Origin: Escherichia coli | GTDB lineage: Bacteria > Pseudomonadota > Gammaproteobacteria > Enterobacterales > Enterobacteriaceae | Reading direction: 5' to 3' (one strand) | DNA: 64,000 nucleotides | Assembly: GCF_050920415.1 (NCBI RefSeq) | Contig: NZ_CP169309.1 | In this document: one piece after another, positions 31,513-45,133 of the stretch | Layout: every line of letters begins with the position of its first letter | Position numbering within the stretch: the first letter of the stretch is position 1 | Notes under the pieces: model-generated | Databases searched by the model: none | What the model was told of the DNA's origin: nothing | The model's input: the letters and a program-made list of their open reading frames with translations, nothing else | Translations under genes and position numbers: made by a program

Positions 31513-33747
<2,235 letters not shown>

Positions 33748-34020: not shown

Positions 34021-34914
<894 letters not shown>

Positions 34915-34956
34915 TTACCTCATCAATCGCTTGTAGTTATATGTTGTGTTGTGCAC

Positions 34957-34988
34957 ATCTATCCGTTTAGACGTCCAGATGTAAAGAT
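34957..34988 (-). promoter_or_regulatory. MetJ operator (tandem met boxes) upstream of metF
   Basis: Minus-strand sequence ctttacatctggacgtctaaacggatagat contains tandem 8 bp repeats resembling the met-box consensus AGACGTCT. Confidence 0.75.
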
Positions 34989-35204
34989 GAAGGAAAAGCT
35001 GAAGGGCGTCAACCGAAAAATGACCAATGATGGTGAGGAAAAATCAGGGAAGATGAAAAAAATTCATCTTAATTAGAGGTAATAAATAGATTTCTTTATA
35101 GCGCAATCAACCTCACTCGTTTTGACTGATATACAGGCAACACAACGGCACCTGTTTCTCATTCGAAAAACAACGCCCTGCCACCAGATGGTGATGCTAA
35201 AGCA

Positions 35205-35245
35205 TCTGATTCGGCCTGCGCTCTCGTGTAGGCCGAATACAGAAT
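35205..35245. repeat. REP-like palindrome near the left edge of the metF-metL accessory segment
   Basis: Inverted repeat attcggcctgcgctctcgtgtaggccgaat. Confidence 0.4.
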
Positions 35246-35294
35246 CTGCGAAATCAACGGGTAACAAACAGCAGAGTCAACTCAGTGCGTACTT

Positions 35295-36850
35295 TTATTT
35301 AATATCTTTCACGCGCATACCGTTGATCTGTTCATCCGTGATGGTATTACCCGCTTTAAAGTAATCAACCACCGCGTGATAAACGTAATAACCGCCCGTC
35401 GTATTGCGCGCTTTACCCTCGGTAAACGCGGTAAAACCATCTCCACCATCAGCAAGGAAACTCTGAGTGGCAATGTGGTAAACCGTCGCATCTTCAATCG
35501 GTTTGCCATTCAAAGTCAGTGAGATAACCCGCTGACCAACCGGCTTGCTGCTGTCGTACTTCATTTCCAGGCCTTTCGATACCTGTAAAACGCCATTACT
35601 TAAACTTGCGCCGTGTTCCATCAAACTGCGTAATTGTTTACCCGTGAGATCCATCGTCACCAGTTCGTTGGGGAACGGGAAGGTACTGATGACGCCACCC
35701 ATCGTAATTGCACCCGCCGGGATCTCATTGCGAATCCCGCCAGAGTTGGTTAACGCCAACTGGGTATTTTTACCCGCCGCTGCCAGCAAAGCGTCCGCCG
35801 CCAGGTTCCCGAGGGAAGCCGATTCACCATAGGCACGTTTTAATTCAACCGGCGATTGCGCCACCGTTTGCTGACTTCATCCAGCTTTTTGTTCCAACTA
35901 TCAATCACCTGTTTCGTTTGCGGATCGGGCTTCCACTCATCGGCGTAAAGGGTTTTAAGCTCGAAGTTTTTCACCGTAAAAGTGTGCGGCTTCTCTTTGT
36001 AGTCGAGAACCAGTTTACCCACATCAATCCCGCCGCTGTCAGTGGAGAGGATTAACGTATTGCCGACTTTAATCGGTTCCGGCGTACCCACATGTGCATG
36101 CCCGGTGATCAAAATATCCAGCCCTTTCACCTGACTTGCCGTCTGAATATCTTTATCCAGCGCGCGACGCACATCTGTGCCTCCCATACTGGACTGGCGG
36201 GCCGGAACACCTTCGTGGATCAGGGCAACGGTCAAATCAACCTTGCCTTTGAGTTCATCGATATAACGTTGTAGCCATTTAATTTCATCACGCGCCTCAA
36301 TACCCACTCGCGTTGCCGCAGATACCGTATCATTAAAGGCAAATACACCGTGCAAACCAATCACGCCAATTTTCACGCCGTCTTTTTCAATGATGGTATA
36401 GGGCTTATCCCAGAATGATTTACTGCTGTTCTGATAAAAAACATTACCCTGCACAATCGGGAATTTTGCCTGACTCAGCTGTAATAACGTATTGTCCCAG
36501 CCGTGATCAAATTCATGATTACCTATAGTGACCGCATCGAACGGCATGGTATTCATAATATCGATAATCGCCTTGCCTTTAGTCAGGCTGCTGATATACG
36601 GCCCGGTAAAATAGTCACCCGCATCAAAAAACCAGGTCGCTTTGTTTTTAGCTTTTTCTTGTTTAACAAGCGTAGTGATATTTGCCCAGCCGCCAATATC
36701 TCGTTTACCGTCAGCAATCCACGGCACTTTATAAGGCTCTACATGTGCATGGAGGTCGTTGGTATAAATGATGGTGACATCTTTGGCGCAAGCCCAAAAC
36801 GGCAGTGTTAATGCGATACCCGCAGCAAGCATTTTAATTTTCATAAACAA
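35295..36850 (-). pseudogene. Frameshifted periplasmic 5'-nucleotidase/metallophosphatase paralog (UshA/CpdB-type two-domain enzyme)
   Basis: ORF 35840..36850 (336 aa, signal peptide MFMKIKMLAAGIALTLPFWA; metallophosphatase motifs NDLHAH, DAGDYF, GNHEFD, GHAH) is followed in another frame by ORF 35295..35864 (189 aa, nucleotidase C-terminal domain). The two parts align end-to-end with the intact downstream paralog, so a single frameshift near 35860-35875 splits one gene. Confidence 0.75.
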
Positions 36851-36903
36851 TCCCTTCCAGTGAGATAAAGGATTGCTACATTACGTTCTGAAAGGCTTTT
36901 TTA

Positions 36904-36919
36904 TGTGAGAATACTCACA
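36904..36919. promoter_or_regulatory. CRP-type palindrome (TGTGA-N6-TCACA) in the divergent promoter region
   Basis: tgtgagaatactcaca is a perfect match to both CRP half-sites with a 6 bp spacer, lying between the nucleotidase pseudogene start (36850) and the Cys-rich ORF start (36977). Confidence 0.55.
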
Positions 36920-36976
36920 TCCAGAGGCGATAACTGTAGGACAAAATCAACGACCTTATGAAATCGTTGGTGATAT

Positions 36977-38104
36977 ATGTCAAATCTGTTTGCGATTAAT
37001 GTCTGTAAAACGTTCGGTTGTCGAAATTTGGGATTGGCCTCATCGGAAGATTACAGTTGGCCAGACTATAAACTGGGTTTTCCGGCACTACACTGCCAGG
37101 CATGCGGAAGTTACCCCCCTTTGTTTGATGAACAACAATTTCGTGACTGGTTGTCAGTTCACATGACTACGTGTGCCATAGAAACAGGGCATTTTTGTCC
37201 ATCATGCTATTGTAAAGAAAAGATTTTTTATGGCCACAACCCGCAGGGAACACAACGCGTTCAATGCCGTTCATGCAAAAAAGTCTGGACTCCGAAACAG
37301 CAGCCAGCAAGAGAAATTACGTATCCCCAGTCCATTGAAACCGTTCAACTGTTCATGCCCTTTCAAGGAGCCAGCGCACTACAAAAGCTCTATGTTTTAG
37401 TCAGTCTTGACGCCACTCGTGGCAACATCCTTCATCTCTCCACGAATTATACGCAACATCAGACAGGAGACAGTCTGCGGTACAGTTACAGAGGCAATAC
37501 AGAACCAACTGAGCACCATAGCGATATTGTGCAGAGGGTAGATATGCGTGAAGCGCAATTCTTGCGCCGGAGCCAGTTCGATGAAATTCAGTATGGCAGT
37601 GCTGTGCTCAAGCGCAATGGCAAGGGAGCCATACTACGCCCGGTTATCACGGCACACGGGCATTTCAGAATACTGAAAATCCGCTTTCCACATGTCAAAA
37701 CGCATATCATTTCACACGAATGTTTTCTGAGAGGCGCAATTATTACAGCCTGGGCAGATCAGTTCCGCCAACAACAAGGCGAACTTTGGTTCGTAGAAGA
37801 AGAAATCAGCGACCGTAACGCTGATATTCCCTGGCATTTTCAGGGAACGACATACCATGGTTGGTGGCAAAATCAGTGGCAACGCTGGGGGCAGGGGAAT
37901 AACAGCAAGATGGTCTGCCTGCTCACAGGAGTCTCCTTAGAAAGGGGCGCAAATGTTTCTCTGGCAACCAGTCGTTGCTTTATCACATGGCTGACAGACC
38001 AACACGACTTTACCCAAAGCGCGTTATTATCCGCAGGTCGCGTAACGAAAATGCTGACCTCACTGGCGTTAAAATACAATGAATCGCTCAATCCATCTTG
38101 TTAG
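36977..38104 (+). CDS. Hypothetical cysteine-rich protein with an IS1 InsA-like N-terminal zinc ribbon
   Basis: 375 aa. N-terminal 100 aa carry CxxxxC, CxxC, CxxC and CxxC motifs (CKTFGC, CQAC, CPSC, CRSC); the stretch CPSC..RVQCRSCKKVW resembles the IS1 InsA zinc finger CPSC..RYLCSHCRKTW as I recall it. No recognisable DDE or HTH motif seen by eye in the remaining 270 aa. Flanked by AT-rich DNA. Confidence 0.6.
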   Translation: MSNLFAINVCKTFGCRNLGLASSEDYSWPDYKLGFPALHCQACGSYPPLFDEQQFRDWLSVHMTTCAIETGHFCPSCYCKEKIFYGHNPQGTQRVQCRSCKKVWTPKQQPAREITYPQSIETVQLFMPFQGASALQKLYVLVSLDATRGNILHLSTNYTQHQTGDSLRYSYRGNTEPTEHHSDIVQRVDMREAQFLRRSQFDEIQYGSAVLKRNGKGAILRPVITAHGHFRILKIRFPHVKTHIISHECFLRGAIITAWADQFRQQQGELWFVEEEISDRNADIPWHFQGTTYHGWWQNQWQRWGQGNNSKMVCLLTGVSLERGANVSLATSRCFITWLTDQHDFTQSALLSAGRVTKMLTSLALKYNESLNPSC

Positions 38105-38333
38105 TCAATACACTCGACAAACGACCATAAATTAATGGGATCACTATTTCTCATTTAATTAAATATATGAATGTATGACTGAAAAATATAATCACAGTCA
38201 ATGTTTAATTAATAACATTATTTGTTACTAAGATCACATAATACTTTCCTGACCTATGCTTACATAAAAATAAGACACGGAGTTCCTTTTATTTAAATAA
38301 TTCAACCAATGTAACAACCCCTATCAAGGAGGG

Positions 38334-39887
38334 ATGATGAGAACTGTATTTACGACTTTATCAGTCATATTCAGCGTGATGTTTTCTCACAGTATACTAG
38401 CTCAGGACGTTACTATTTATTATACGAATGATATTCACGCACATGTCAATCCGGCAAAAATTCCCGCTGTTGATAAGAACAGACTTGTAGGTGGTATGGC
38501 TAATATCGCAGGCATCGTTAATGAAGCGAAGAAAAAAAACAAAGATGTCTTTTTCTTTGATGCAGGCGACTATTTTACCGGTCCGTATATCAGTACCCTG
38601 ACCAAAGGTGAAGCTATTATTGATATCATGAACACCATGCCCTTTGATGCGGTGTCCGTTGGTAATCACGAGTTCGATCACGGCGTGCCCAATATGGTAT
38701 CTCAGTTATCAAAAGCAAAATTCCCCATTCTGCTGGGAAATATTTACTACACCGATACAAATAAACCAGTTTGGGATCATCCGTGGACCATTATCGAAAA
38801 AGATGGTTTAAAGATTGGTGTGATTGGATTGCATGGTGCATTCGCTTTCTATGATACAGTCGCGGCAAAAGCACGTGAAGGCGTAGAAGCCAGAGACGAA
38901 ATTAAATATTTAAATAAAGCACTTGCAGAATTAAAAGGTAAAGTCGACATTACCGTTTTGCTAATTCACGAAGGTGTTCCGGCGCGTCAATCAAGCTTTG
39001 GTAGTAAAGATGTGGAGCGGCTACTACAGGCAGATATTGAGACAGCTAAAAAAGTGAATGGTGTTGATGTCTTAATTACCGGTCACGCACATGTCGGAAC
39101 ACCGCAACCAATAAAAGTTAATAACACATTAATTGTATCTACCGATGCATACGGCACCGACATCGGAAAACTTGTGCTTGATTACAATCCGAAAACAAAG
39201 AAAATTGATAGTTATAATGGTGAGTTAATCACCATCTTTGCAGATCAATTTAAACCTGACACCATCGTTCAAAATACTATCGATAAATGGAGCGTAAAAC
39301 TTAACAAAATAACACAGGAAGTTGTCGGCCATTCTCCCGTAGTTTTAACACGTGAGTATGGCAGTTCTTCTTCTACCGGTAACCTTATTCTGGATGCAAT
39401 GATGGAAAAAACACCTGATGCCATTGCCGGATTTCAAAATAGCGGTGGGATGCGAGCTGATTTTCCTAAAGGTGATATCACACTGGGAGATGTTATTAGC
39501 ACATTCCCCTTTAATAATGACCTCATCGAGATGGATTTGACGGGCCGCGATCTCAAATCGTTGATGACGCATGCAACCAATCTAACTAACGGTGTGTTAC
39601 AGGTTTCAAAAAGCGTTGCGGTTGTCTATGACAGCAAAAAACCACTCAACCAACGGTTAATCTCTTTCACCATTAACGGCAAACCCGTGGAAGATAATCA
39701 AACATATCGTATTGCCACGCACTCCTTTTGTGCCAGTGGTGGTGACGGTTTTGAAGCATTTTTGAATGGAAAAAATGTGAAGACGATACCGGGAACAACC
39801 TCGGCGGAATCAATCATCGATTATTTCAAAAATCATAAACCTGTCACCCCAGACTTAACTAAACGAGTCATGGACGTCGCCAAATAA
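38334..39887 (+). CDS. Periplasmic 5'-nucleotidase/metallophosphatase (UshA/CpdB family), paralog B
   Basis: 517 aa; signal peptide MMRTVFTTLSVIFSVMFSHSILA; all metallophosphatase motifs present (NDIHAH, DAGDYF, GNHEFD, GHAH) plus a C-terminal nucleotidase domain. Strong RBS aggaggg; the start may be the second ATG at 38337. Confidence 0.8.
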   Translation: MMRTVFTTLSVIFSVMFSHSILAQDVTIYYTNDIHAHVNPAKIPAVDKNRLVGGMANIAGIVNEAKKKNKDVFFFDAGDYFTGPYISTLTKGEAIIDIMNTMPFDAVSVGNHEFDHGVPNMVSQLSKAKFPILLGNIYYTDTNKPVWDHPWTIIEKDGLKIGVIGLHGAFAFYDTVAAKAREGVEARDEIKYLNKALAELKGKVDITVLLIHEGVPARQSSFGSKDVERLLQADIETAKKVNGVDVLITGHAHVGTPQPIKVNNTLIVSTDAYGTDIGKLVLDYNPKTKKIDSYNGELITIFADQFKPDTIVQNTIDKWSVKLNKITQEVVGHSPVVLTREYGSSSSTGNLILDAMMEKTPDAIAGFQNSGGMRADFPKGDITLGDVISTFPFNNDLIEMDLTGRDLKSLMTHATNLTNGVLQVSKSVAVVYDSKKPLNQRLISFTINGKPVEDNQTYRIATHSFCASGGDGFEAFLNGKNVKTIPGTTSAESIIDYFKNHKPVTPDLTKRVMDVAK

Positions 39888-39921
39888 AATATCATTTATC
39901 AGTCTATATATTTAACAAGGA

Positions 39922-41547
39922 ATGCGAATGAAAACAGTGCAGCGTACTTTACTTGCCGCAACATTGCTGACTATTTTTTCGGTCTCAGTCATGGCGCAGG
40001 ATGGCACGATTATTTATACAAATGATCTTCACACTCATGTGGATTCTTATAAAGTGCCGTATATCGCAGACGGAAAACGCGACATTGGCGGCTTTGCCAA
40101 TATATCTACTTTAGTAAAACAAGAGAAAGCGAAAAATAAAGCCACCTTTTATTTTGATGCTGGAGACTATTTCACCGGCCCTTATATCAGCAGTCTGACA
40201 AAGGGCGAAGCAATAATTGACATTATGAATACCATGCCTTTTGACGCAGTATCAATCGGCAATCATGAGTTTGACCATGGCTGGGATAATGCCCTGCGAC
40301 AATTAAGCAAAGCGAATTTTCCTGTTTTATTGGGCAATGTTTATCATAAAGAGAGTGAGAAACCCTTCTGGAACAAGCCCTACACCATCCTGGAAAAAGA
40401 TGGCATCAAGATTGGTATTATTGGGCTACACGGCGTATTTGCATTTAATGATACGGTCTCGGAGCTCTCTCTCCAGGGACTCGATAATGACAATAATAAC
40501 CGCTTTGATAAATCTTCCGAGACCCTTAAGAATCAGGGGATTGAAGCACGTGATGAAGTGAAGTATTTGCAGCATTATATCGACGAGTTACGTGATAAGG
40601 TTGACCTCACTGTGGCGCTGGTTCATGAAGGCGTTCCGGCGCGTCAGTCCAGCATTGGCAATACAGATGTTAGACGCGCTCTTGATAAAGATATTCAAAC
40701 CGCTAGCAAGGTGAAAGGATTGGATATTCTGATTACCGGGCATGCCCACGTCGGAACGCCAGAACCAATCAAAGTCGGCAACACCTTAATCCTTTCGACT
40801 GATAGTGGCGGTATCGATATTGGTAAATTAGTCCTTGATGTCAACCCTACAGCTCGTACCCATAAAATGAAGAGCTTTGAGCTGAAAACAGTTTATGCCG
40901 ATGAATGGATACCCGATCCAACGACACAAAAAGTTATCAATGGCTGGAATAAAAAACTGGCGGATATTGTACGCCAACCAGTGGGTGAATCATCGATTGT
41001 ATTAACTCGCGCCTATGGTGAGTCATCGCAACTAGGCAACCTGTTTACCGATGCAATGCTTGTCGCTGCTCCGACTGCACAGATTGCATTGATAAACTCC
41101 GGCAGCTTACGTGCGGATATAAATGCAGGCACGATTACCTTTGGCGACATTACCAGTACATTCCCCTTCAAGAATGAACTTACTGAAATGGATCTCAGCG
41201 GTAAGGATCTGCGTAACCTACTGGAACACGGGGCATCGCTTACCAATGGCATCCTGCAAATGTCAAAAGGCGCAGAAATGCGCTATACCCCGCAGAAACC
41301 AGTAGGTCAGCGCATAGTATCTTTTAAAATTAATGGTGAAGAGATCGTTGATACGAATATTTACCATGTTGCAACAACGACTTTCCTTGCACTGGGGGGC
41401 GATGGTTTTCTGGCATTCAAAGAAGGGAAAAATGTTCAGGTCCGCGCCAGAAATAACATGTCCGATGTCGTGATCGATTATTTGAAGAAAGGCCACAAGA
41501 TTACGCCTGCACAGGTAAATGAAATGCGGGTGGACGTTAGCAAATAA
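39922..41547 (+). CDS. Periplasmic 5'-nucleotidase/metallophosphatase (UshA/CpdB family), paralog C
   Basis: 541 aa; signal peptide MRMKTVQRTLLAATLLTIFSVSVMA; metallophosphatase motifs intact. The N-terminal domain is about 80-85% identical to the frameshifted paralog and carries an extra N/D-rich segment of about 25 aa. Confidence 0.8.
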   Translation: MRMKTVQRTLLAATLLTIFSVSVMAQDGTIIYTNDLHTHVDSYKVPYIADGKRDIGGFANISTLVKQEKAKNKATFYFDAGDYFTGPYISSLTKGEAIIDIMNTMPFDAVSIGNHEFDHGWDNALRQLSKANFPVLLGNVYHKESEKPFWNKPYTILEKDGIKIGIIGLHGVFAFNDTVSELSLQGLDNDNNNRFDKSSETLKNQGIEARDEVKYLQHYIDELRDKVDLTVALVHEGVPARQSSIGNTDVRRALDKDIQTASKVKGLDILITGHAHVGTPEPIKVGNTLILSTDSGGIDIGKLVLDVNPTARTHKMKSFELKTVYADEWIPDPTTQKVINGWNKKLADIVRQPVGESSIVLTRAYGESSQLGNLFTDAMLVAAPTAQIALINSGSLRADINAGTITFGDITSTFPFKNELTEMDLSGKDLRNLLEHGASLTNGILQMSKGAEMRYTPQKPVGQRIVSFKINGEEIVDTNIYHVATTTFLALGGDGFLAFKEGKNVQVRARNNMSDVVIDYLKKGHKITPAQVNEMRVDVSK

Positions 41548-41558
41548 TAAAAAATTAT

Positions 41559-41594
41559 AATGCCATTCATTCACTGAATGGCATTATTTTTCTC
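41559..41594 (+). terminator. Intrinsic terminator after nucleotidase paralog C
   Basis: aatgccattca ttcac tgaatggcatt followed by a T-rich run. Confidence 0.6.
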
Positions 41595-41624
41595 TAAATC
41601 AACAATAAATAATGAGATATATTT

Positions 41625-42485
41625 ATGTGTATAAAAAAGCACGGGATAGCTTTATCGATTCTATTAATACCTTGCATTGGAAACGCTCAGGAAATTAAAA
41701 GTGAGGAAGGCTGGTTACATCAAAGCTTGAATGTCATTGGTCGCACAGACTCTCGCTTTGGCCCAAGGCTGACTAACGACCTCTACCCTGAATATACTGT
41801 AGCAGGAAGAAAAGACTGGTTTGATTTTTATGGTTATGTTGATCTACCAAAATTCTTTGGCGTCGGCAGTCACTATGATGTTGGGATCTGGGATGAGGGC
41901 TCACCACTATTTACGGAAATAGAACCTCGGTTTTCCATTGACAAATTGACCGGATTAAATCTTGCGTTCGGCCCTTTTAAAGAATGGTTCATTGCAAACA
42001 ACTATGTCTATGATATGGGTGACAACCAGTCATCCCGGCAAAGTACATGGTATATGGGGCTTGGTACAGATATCGACACGGGTCTACCAATTAAGCTTTC
42101 TGCCAATATATACACCAAGTATCAGTGGCAAAACTATGGTGCCGCTAATGAAAATGAATGGGACGGATATCGATTCAAAATAAAATATAGCATTCCTCTT
42201 ACCCATTTATTCGGAGGGCGATTGGTATACAATAGTTTTACTAACTTTGATTTTGGCTCCGATCTTGCGGACAAATCACACAATAATAAACGAACCAGTA
42301 ATGCTATTGCTTCAAGCCATATCCTTTCCCTGCTATATGAACACTGGAAATTTGCATTTACACTACGTTATTTTCACAACGGTGGACAATGGAATGCTGG
42401 GGAGAAAGTTAACTTCGGAGATGGTCCATTTGAATTAAAAAACACAGGATGGGGAACCTATACTACTATTGGTTATCAATTTTAA
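41625..42485 (+). CDS. Tsx-family nucleoside-specific outer membrane channel paralog
   Basis: 286 aa; aligns along its whole length with E. coli Tsx as I recall it (e.g. [63 protein letters not shown]). Signal peptide present. Confidence 0.8.
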
Positions 42486-42664
42486 ATCAGGTGATGTTTT
42501 AGATATTTTTACTTAATGCCATTTTGTAATTGTCATAAATAACTTCACCATTCACACTGTGAATTCATCGCTCAACACAAAAGCCCCTTATTACCGGGGC
42601 ACTGACCAAAGGCAAAATGACAATCAATCACCACCTCCGCAGGAGGTGGTTTAGAGGTGACAAC

Positions 42665-42690
42665 AAAAGCTGGCAACTGCCAGCTTTTGT
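42665..42690. terminator. Bidirectional intrinsic terminator downstream of metL
   Basis: aaaagctggcaactgccagctttt, a perfect hairpin flanked by an A-run and a T-run. Confidence 0.7.
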
Positions 42691-42700
42691 TCAATAATCA

Positions 42701-45133
42701 CTACAACAACTGCGCCAGACGGTTAATATCCGACTGAATCGCCCCGGCGGTGACGTCGCGCCCTGCACCTGGCCCGCGGATCACCAGCGGGTTGTCGCGA
42801 TACCAGCGGCTTTCGATGGCAAAGACGTTATCGCACGGTAGTAGTGATGCCAGCGGATGGTCTTCTCGCACCGCTTCCACGCCTACTCGCGCTTTGCCGT
42901 TGGCATCGAAACGCGCCACGTAGCGCAACACCAGCCCCATTTCACGGGCCGCTTCCAACCGTTGTACCATCTGCTCATTAAGTTCATCGCCATTTTCAAA
43001 GAAATGGTCGATGCTTCCACCTTCGCAATGGGTTGGCACCAGTGATTCAACACGCACCTGGTCCGGTTCAATGTTGTAACCCGCTTCACGCGCCAGAATC
43101 ACCAGCTTGCGCATCACGTCTTTGCCGGAGAGGTCATCACGCGGGTCAGGTTCAGTTAAGCCCTGCTGCCACGCCTGATCCACCAGCTCGGTAAACGGCA
43201 CGCTACCGTCGAATTGCAGGAACAGCCAGGAGAGTGTGCCGGAGAAGATCCCGCTGATCGACAAAATAGTGTCGCCGCTGTCGATCAGATCGCGCACGGT
43301 ATGGTTGATCGGCAAACCTGCGCCGACGGTGGCGTTGTATAGCCAGTGACGCCCGGTTTTTTCGAACGCGTCGTGGATCTGGCGATATTTATTGCTGTCG
43401 CTCGCTCCCGCCAGTTTGTTGGCACTGATGACGTGGAAACCGTGGCTGGCGAAATCGAGGTATTGATCGGCCAGTTGCTGACTGGCGGTAACGTCCAGCA
43501 CCACTAAATCATCATACGGATGGGCACGCATCCACAGGAACAGCGACTCTTCATCCTGTTCGACGGCTTCATCATTAAAGAAGGCTAGCGCACGGCTGGC
43601 GTCCAGCCCGTCATAGCTCAACAGGCTGCGACGGCTGTCCACCACGCCTGCCAGCACAAATTCAAAGCCGGTGCGCGCCGAGAGCGTGCTCTGCTCACGG
43701 GCGAACAGTTCCAGCCAGCGGGAACCGATATTGCCCTTACCGAACAATACCAGGCCGATGCGTTTTTCTGCGCGGAAGACGGACTGATGCAGCCCCTGAA
43801 TCAGGCTTTCGGTCGGCCCGGTGCGCAGTACTGCCACCAGGCTGATGCCGTCATCGGACTGCCAGGTAAACTCGACCGGCTGGCCTTTCAGTTGCTGCCA
43901 GAAGCGGTGGCAATGCAGCGGGTTACGGGTGACGCCCGCCCCAACCATCGCCACCAGCGCCAGCCCCTGACGCAGGCGCAGTTCGCCAGGTAATCCTGCT
44001 TCGTCGAGGATTTTCAGCGCACTGTCGGCCACTTCCGAGGTGTAGCAAAATTGCAGCAACTGGCGATCGTTATGCACGCCAACCGCCAGTGGGCGCACCT
44101 GAGCACGTTTCAGGATTTGGTCGATCTCTTTATGCGCCAGTTTGAAATCCTGACTGGCGGGCACCTGAAACTCAATCAAACAGACATCATCGTGGCTGGT
44201 GACAATACGCGCGCCCGTACCGGAAGCCAGCACGCGTTCAATGCGCGTGGAACCTTGATCCGGTGTATAGCTACAGCGCAGCTGCAGGTCGATTTCACTG
44301 CCAGAAACTGGCTGTAAAGTACGCGCGTGCAACACTGGCGCGGCAAGACGCGCCAGTTCGCTGGCTTCATCAAGACGCAGCAATGGCAGCAGACAGGCAT
44401 CTTTCACTTTACGCGGGTCGGCGCTATATACCCCGGCGACGTCACTCCAGATGGTTACGCGGGAAACTCCCGCCAGCGCACCGATTTGTGTCGCGGAATA
44501 GTCGGAACCGTTACGCCCCAGCAGCACCGTTTCACCGGCGTTGTTACGGCTGATAAACCCGGTCACCACCAGACGTTTGCCCGGATGTTGTACCAGTAGC
44601 TGTTGCAGCAACGGGTAAGAAAGCCCTTCATCAACCTGCGGCTGCGCGGCGCGTTCAGCGCGTAAAAACTCGCGGGCATCAAGCCAGGCCGCTGGCAATC
44701 CTTGTTGATTAAGTACCGCAGACATCAGGCGCGCCGACCACACTTCACCGTGGCCCACCACTTCCGCATACACCGCATCGTTAATACCGCTGTCGAGCAG
44801 CGCCGCCAGGCGTTCCAGATCGCTGACAAAAGCGCTAATGAGGCTATCGGCTTCTTCAGCGGGTAGCAGGCCGCTAATCAGATCGCACTGATAACGACGT
44901 AGCGTTTGTTGAACCTGATGCGCAGAGAGACGATCGGTCTGGCTTAGTTTCAACCAGTTAATCAACTGGTTAGTGGTGCTACCGGCGGCGGAAACCACCA
45001 TCATATCGTCAGGCTGAGAGTACTCCGCCATAATGCCCGCGACACGCAAATAACACTTCACATCAGCCAGACTACTGCCACCAAATTTATGCAGTTGACG
45101 ACCTTTCGCCCCTGCCTGCGCAATCACACTCAT
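42701..45133 (-). CDS. metL: Bifunctional aspartokinase II / homoserine dehydrogenase II
   Basis: 810 aa, MSVIAQAGAKGRQLHKFGGSSLADVKCYLRVAGIMAEY... Confidence 0.96.
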   Translation of the reverse strand: MSVIAQAGAKGRQLHKFGGSSLADVKCYLRVAGIMAEYSQPDDMMVVSAAGSTTNQLINWLKLSQTDRLSAHQVQQTLRRYQCDLISGLLPAEEADSLISAFVSDLERLAALLDSGINDAVYAEVVGHGEVWSARLMSAVLNQQGLPAAWLDAREFLRAERAAQPQVDEGLSYPLLQQLLVQHPGKRLVVTGFISRNNAGETVLLGRNGSDYSATQIGALAGVSRVTIWSDVAGVYSADPRKVKDACLLPLLRLDEASELARLAAPVLHARTLQPVSGSEIDLQLRCSYTPDQGSTRIERVLASGTGARIVTSHDDVCLIEFQVPASQDFKLAHKEIDQILKRAQVRPLAVGVHNDRQLLQFCYTSEVADSALKILDEAGLPGELRLRQGLALVAMVGAGVTRNPLHCHRFWQQLKGQPVEFTWQSDDGISLVAVLRTGPTESLIQGLHQSVFRAEKRIGLVLFGKGNIGSRWLELFAREQSTLSARTGFEFVLAGVVDSRRSLLSYDGLDASRALAFFNDEAVEQDEESLFLWMRAHPYDDLVVLDVTASQQLADQYLDFASHGFHVISANKLAGASDSNKYRQIHDAFEKTGRHWLYNATVGAGLPINHTVRDLIDSGDTILSISGIFSGTLSWLFLQFDGSVPFTELVDQAWQQGLTEPDPRDDLSGKDVMRKLVILAREAGYNIEPDQVRVESLVPTHCEGGSIDHFFENGDELNEQMVQRLEAAREMGLVLRYVARFDANGKARVGVEAVREDHPLASLLPCDNVFAIESRWYRDNPLVIRGPGAGRDVTAGAIQSDINRLAQLL

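Follow-up and report, generated by a model that had tools for sequence, protein, structure and literature searches.

When the two domains of a single enzyme are found on neighbouring open reading frames (ORFs), the question is whether the gene has decayed, whether the break is an error of the assembly, or whether the divided arrangement is itself of use to the cell. This question is raised by a gene of the UshA/5'-nucleotidase superfamily, here called paralog A, in the window analysed in this study, a 64,000-nt stretch of an Escherichia coli chromosome. The original prediction, made from the nucleotide sequence of the window, left room for recent pseudogenisation, for a sequencing or assembly indel, and for an indel-prone on/off switch. 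The evidence assembled below points to the first of these, and we consider it very probable that paralog A has undergone a recent, lineage-specific loss of function through a 4-nt deletion, where the loss of activity and the redundancy with related genes are both inferred.

The metF-metL island and its nucleotidase paralogs

Paralog A lies in an accessory island of five genes that separates metF from metL (Table 1), gene names being those of the PGAP annotation of the matching region in a near-identical genome. Three of the five genes are UshA-family paralogs (A, B and C) that share 54-66% amino acid identity with one another. Like UshA and CpdB of E. coli, paralog A combines a Metallophos with a 5_nucleotid_C domain, bears a signal peptide and keeps the conserved metal-binding motifs. 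Its relation to UshA is that of a distant paralog, with an intact ortholog scoring 151 bits against the NF007109 equivalog cut-off of 600.

Table 1. Positions of the genes and fragment ORFs discussed in the text, numbered from the first nucleotide of the window.
Feature	Position	Strand	Remarks
katG	31513..33732	-	
metF	34021..34911	-	
Accessory island	34912-42700		~7.8 kb, five genes
Paralog A, UshA-family bifunctional metallophosphatase/5'-nucleotidase, pseudogene	35295..36844	-	PGAP 'frameshifted'; intact orthologs in the same place
C-terminal fragment ORF of paralog A, 189 aa from GTG	35295..35864	-	Pfam PF02872 5_nucleotid_C
N-terminal fragment ORF of paralog A, 334 aa from ATG	35840..36844	-	Pfam PF00149 Metallophos
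Hypothetical 375-aa gene, divergent from paralog A	36977..38104	+	island member
Paralog B, intact, 517 aa	38334..39887	+	58% aa identity to intact A
Paralog C, intact, 541 aa	39922..41547	+	64-66% aa identity to intact A
Tsx-family nucleoside channel paralog	41625..42485	+	490 bits with NCBIfam NF011686 (cut-off 311)
metL	42701..45133	-	

Of 5426 complete E. coli genomes searched, 1843 have gene A, which adjoins metF in the genomes examined; about one third of complete E. coli genomes have the island of nucleotidase and Tsx genes between metL and metF. Matches to gene A are chromosomal in this search, with the exception of 2 of the 2404 matching places, which are on plasmids. With three UshA-family paralogs, a Tsx channel and a hypothetical gene, the island resembles a module for nucleotide scavenging. 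Nothing was found on a nucleotidase/Tsx island between metL and metF in the paper library searched.

Several observations concern the other members of the island. Paralog C carries an insert of ~24 aa, ELSLQGLDNDNNNRFDKSSETLKNQ, inside its metallophosphatase domain, which is missing from paralogs A and B. In two genomes, the Tsx paralog carries a PGAP flag of partial pseudogene ('missing C-terminus'). The 286-aa ORF, however, matches the 289-position NCBIfam Tsx profile from position 6 to position 289 and has the usual GYxF at its C-terminal end, and the flag is probably an annotation quirk. The 375-aa neighbour yields matches to an InsA/IS1-type zinc ribbon at aa 74-105, all of them sub-threshold (E-values of 0.009 with Pfam, 7e-4 with NCBIfam and 0.004 with PHROGs profiles), and outside this segment there is no match in any of the three collections. 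The protein may be a regulator, or else a fragment of a transposase that has been domesticated.

The deletion between the two halves of paralog A

The upstream ORF of paralog A had been listed at 35840..36850 on the minus strand, as 336 aa from a TTG. Its true start is likely the ATG at 36844, where PGAP also starts intact orthologs. Read from there, the N-terminal fragment consists of a Sec-type signal peptide, a complete metallophosphatase domain in which the motifs DLH, GDYF, GNHEF, IHEG and GHAH are all kept, and an out-of-frame 10-aa tail, KRWRNRRLN and a stop. The C-terminal fragment amounts to the 5_nucleotid_C substrate-binding domain without a signal peptide, and no Shine-Dalgarno sequence stands before its GTG, where the upstream sequence reads AAGTCAGCAAACG-GTG. 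The two ORFs are read in different frames and share 25 nt, in agreement with the original estimate of about that length, and the assignment of a metallophosphatase domain to one half and a nucleotidase domain to the other is borne out by the Pfam matches PF00149 and PF02872, respectively. The claim that the halves are contiguous when set against paralog C also agrees with our alignment, in which both halves run on without interruption against paralog C and against intact orthologs. The presence of both domains on one polypeptide, a feature of the UshA/5'-nucleotidase superfamily, is thus seen in the orthologs and not in the window copy.

A 4-nt gap is the sole length difference between the window copy and the 3-4 intact orthologs aligned, which include those of P19_598, SMS-3-5 and 2017-02-2CC. 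The gap falls between window positions 35874 and 35873 on the minus strand, with a placement that is ambiguous by 1 nt, and inside codons 324-325 of the 517-aa protein. At the junction, the closest intact allele (that of 2017-02-2CC) reads GAAGTCGTGCAGCAA and the window reads GAAGTCAGCAA, or, in a wider view, GATGAAGTCGTGCAGCAAACG and GATGAAGTCAGCAAACG; the lost bases are CGTG or GTGC, with 1 nt of microhomology. The original prediction of a single frameshift at the domain junction therefore stands in that there is one lesion and that it is at the junction, and is refined in that the lesion is a 4-nt deletion and not a 1-nt indel. A 1-nt slip in an AAA run was considered as well, and is ruled out by the 4-nt gap against intact alleles. 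Neither half contains any further stop or indel, and the earlier impression that both are otherwise intact holds. The break follows WNKKLDEV, in a segment that is continuous in a crystallised ortholog and that corresponds to the inter-domain linker of the UshA family (PMC8071527). A script search found neither a homopolymer of 4 or more bases nor a tandem repeat matching the deleted unit at this site of the intact allele, and no X XXY YYZ heptamer in the 37-nt zone within which a -1 shift would bring the frame back, so that the homopolymer or slippery site originally suggested as something to look for at the junction did not come to light.

The arrangement in other strains shows which state came before the break. 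A search with the 101 nt that span the junction gave matches in 1826 complete E. coli genomes, only 1 of which was at least 99% identical, the other 1825 not being identical; all 29 others among the junction matches listed span 105 nt, that is, they have 4 extra bases. When the whole gene was compared across a spread sample of 39 further genomes, it was exactly 4 nt longer than the window copy in 37 of them, and the remaining two were 21F61, with a different lesion, and 2018-05-2CC, with a remnant. Intact orthologs of 517 aa occupy the same genomic position in P19_598, SMS-3-5 and 2017-02-2CC, and are the uninterrupted ORF, expected at roughly 525 aa, that was to be sought in other strains. 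Furthermore, an intact ortholog has been crystallised as a single chain in which the junction region is continuous (PDB entries 3IVD and 3IVE). The P19_598 allele is near-identical to this chain, which it matches over residues 19-517 with 1114 bits, whereas the window copy, with 4 nt gone from its linker, is unable to make a single 517-aa chain. On these comparisons the single-ORF state is ancestral. Two separate genes as the ancestral state, the finding that would have overturned the original prediction, are ruled out by orthologs that are single 517-aa ORFs and by a protein crystallised as one chain. The source of the crystallised protein, a putative 5'-nucleotidase and structural-genomics target, is presumably locus c4898 of strain CFT073.

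Independent inactivation of gene A has also taken place in other lineages, which is what one would expect of an accessory paralog that can be dispensed with. For instance, 21F61 (L007, 355-1907) has its own 1-nt deletion in a TTT run at a different site, ~470 nt upstream, and is flagged as frameshifted, and 2018-05-2CC (L008, 5997-6491) has a C-domain remnant only. In 2018-05-2CC, malI-like and PTS EIIC genes replace the rest of the island.

As with any single frameshift in an assembly, the deletion might be thought an error of sequencing or assembly in a gene that is really one continuous ORF, and at ~35155 a 1-nt homopolymer indel does set the window apart from related assemblies. However, the same deletion is found well beyond the window. 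Gene A of NZ_CP169399.1 (strain MFDS1022581) is a 100% match to the window, deletion included, and this is a separate assembly, because it differs from the window by 1 SNP and 1 homopolymer indel over 19.6 kb. In all, four assemblies other than that of the window, and not identical to it, were read, and the same 4-nt deletion was present in 4 of 4. An exact-sequence look-up returned the identical truncated 334-aa product from 76 blocks of a public assembly collection, which include Logan assemblies built straight from SRA runs, GCA_000194175.2 and GCA_036681285.1, and three loci returned by this look-up are identical or nearly so to the window over 7 kb. Moreover, CGTG/GTGC lies outside any homopolymer and is therefore not the usual type of sequencing error. 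Because other assemblies and the 76 blocks carry it, the 4-nt deletion is genuine and inherited within one clonal lineage; the sequencing or assembly indel entertained in the original prediction is refuted by this record, and the chance that the gene is in reality continuous is negligible. The difference at ~35155 consists of one extra A in the window (GAGAAACAGG against GAGAACAGG in four other assemblies of the same lineage), in the intergenic region between gene A and metF, and may be a homopolymer sequencing difference.

Age of the break and its consequence for the enzyme

Compared with the closest intact allele, that of 2017-02-2CC, the window copy has 23 nt differences, which amount to 22 synonymous codons and 1 non-synonymous codon. 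The more distant allele of P19_598 differs at 49 synonymous and 7 non-synonymous codons. These codon ratios, together with the retention of the metallophosphatase motifs and the lack of any further stop or indel, indicate that gene A was under selection until shortly before the deletion. Judged in this way, the break in gene A is recent, and the recent pseudogenisation named in the original prediction is supported by a single 4-nt deletion, by codon differences of 22 against 1, and by the PGAP flag.

Divergence along gene A is mosaic, with 2-4 differences in the 5' 600 nt and 32-59 in the 3' 950 nt (against P19_598 and SMS-3-5), which suggests intragenic recombination. The recombination breakpoint does not coincide with the deletion site.

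The effect of the deletion on the enzyme can be anticipated from work on other members of the family, in which the catalytic site is in the N domain, the specificity site in the C domain, and the two domains are joined by a linker of ~20 aa and move by hinge rotation (PMC8071527). In chimeras whose C domain is non-cognate, neither 5'- nor 3'-nucleotidase activity is left (PMC8071527). The isolated N domain of CpdB keeps only those activities that are independent of the C domain, on some phosphodiesters, and the isolated C domain is inactive (PMC7922932). In UshA and CpdB the nucleotide is taken up by the C domain, whose rotation brings it to the dimetal site of the covalently attached N domain, and because nucleotidase activity in the family needs an attached C domain, the split gene would no longer make a working nucleotidase. 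In the proposed course of events, the 4-nt deletion in the domain-linking helix shifts the reading frame of a periplasmic UshA-family nucleotidase, translation stops 10 codons on, past the metallophosphatase domain, and the C domain is left stranded in another frame with neither an export signal nor a ribosome-binding site. At most, the cell would be left with an exported N domain that would still act to some degree on small phosphodiesters. Paralog A has most likely lost its nucleotidase function, and carriers would have no full-length functional product, as judged from the absence of a recoding signal. Paralogs B and C, which are intact in the same island, probably cover the function and make the loss of A tolerable, if their 54-66% identity can be taken as a sign of redundancy.

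Other readings of the split gene and its place among relatives

A frameshifted gene of this kind could in principle still be of use. Under one such reading, gene A would be a phase-variable contingency locus with an indel-prone site that toggles the nucleotidase on and off, and for such a switch one can cite the frameshift itself and the second, independent frameshift in 21F61. However, the lesion in 21F61 sits elsewhere in the gene, the intact allele has at the deletion site none of the repeats or homopolymers on which a switch might act, the junction with the deletion occurs in just 1 of the 1826 complete genomes that match there, and every carrier read is in the same state. Among complete genomes at least 99% identical to the window allele the intact state was not seen, and close relatives show no on/off alternation. 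The indel-prone switch of the original prediction is therefore unsupported and extremely unlikely. A full-length enzyme could also be recovered by programmed -1 ribosomal frameshifting or by transcriptional slippage, since a -1 shift anywhere in the 37-nt zone, which runs from the upstream stop of the C frame to the TAA of the N frame, would restore the frame. This zone, however, has no slippery heptamer and no long run of A or T, and the two-frame arrangement is not conserved, the orthologs being in a single frame; the probability of recoding is close to nil.

A different possibility is that the split is functional, and that the exported N domain has been kept as a stand-alone periplasmic phosphodiesterase with an altered or new substrate range. 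The N-terminal fragment retains its signal peptide and every metallophosphatase motif, isolated CpdB N domains still act on some phosphodiesters (PMC7922932), and the allele is present in many samples, as the 76 blocks attest. Persistence of an intact ORF, however, is expected in any case in a young pseudogene, the allele belongs to one clonal lineage only, with no sign of selection specific to the split form, and the C-terminal fragment is equally intact even though it would be useless, which argues for recency rather than selection. A functional split is very unlikely; if true, it would be the natural counterpart of the isolated CpdB N domains that have been studied as constructs in vitro.

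Paralog A is best described as an ordinary lineage-specific pseudogene, and it is already flagged as such by NCBI PGAP, which annotates the identical sequence in NZ_CP169399.1 as 'frameshifted'. In common with other frameshift pseudogenes flagged by PGAP, it has a single disabling indel, intact orthologs at the same position, and a distribution restricted to one lineage. Nothing notable sets it apart from them; the lesion merely happens to fall exactly in the linker, and its halves therefore have the appearance of two neat genes, each the size of a domain. In annotation, both ORFs belong merged as one pseudogene and not as two genes, and the deletion can be used as a clonal marker of the lineage that carries it. 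For the biology of E. coli, paralog A is one more accessory gene decaying in one lineage, and its importance is small; the metL-metF island in which it lies may be worthier of study than the frameshift itself.
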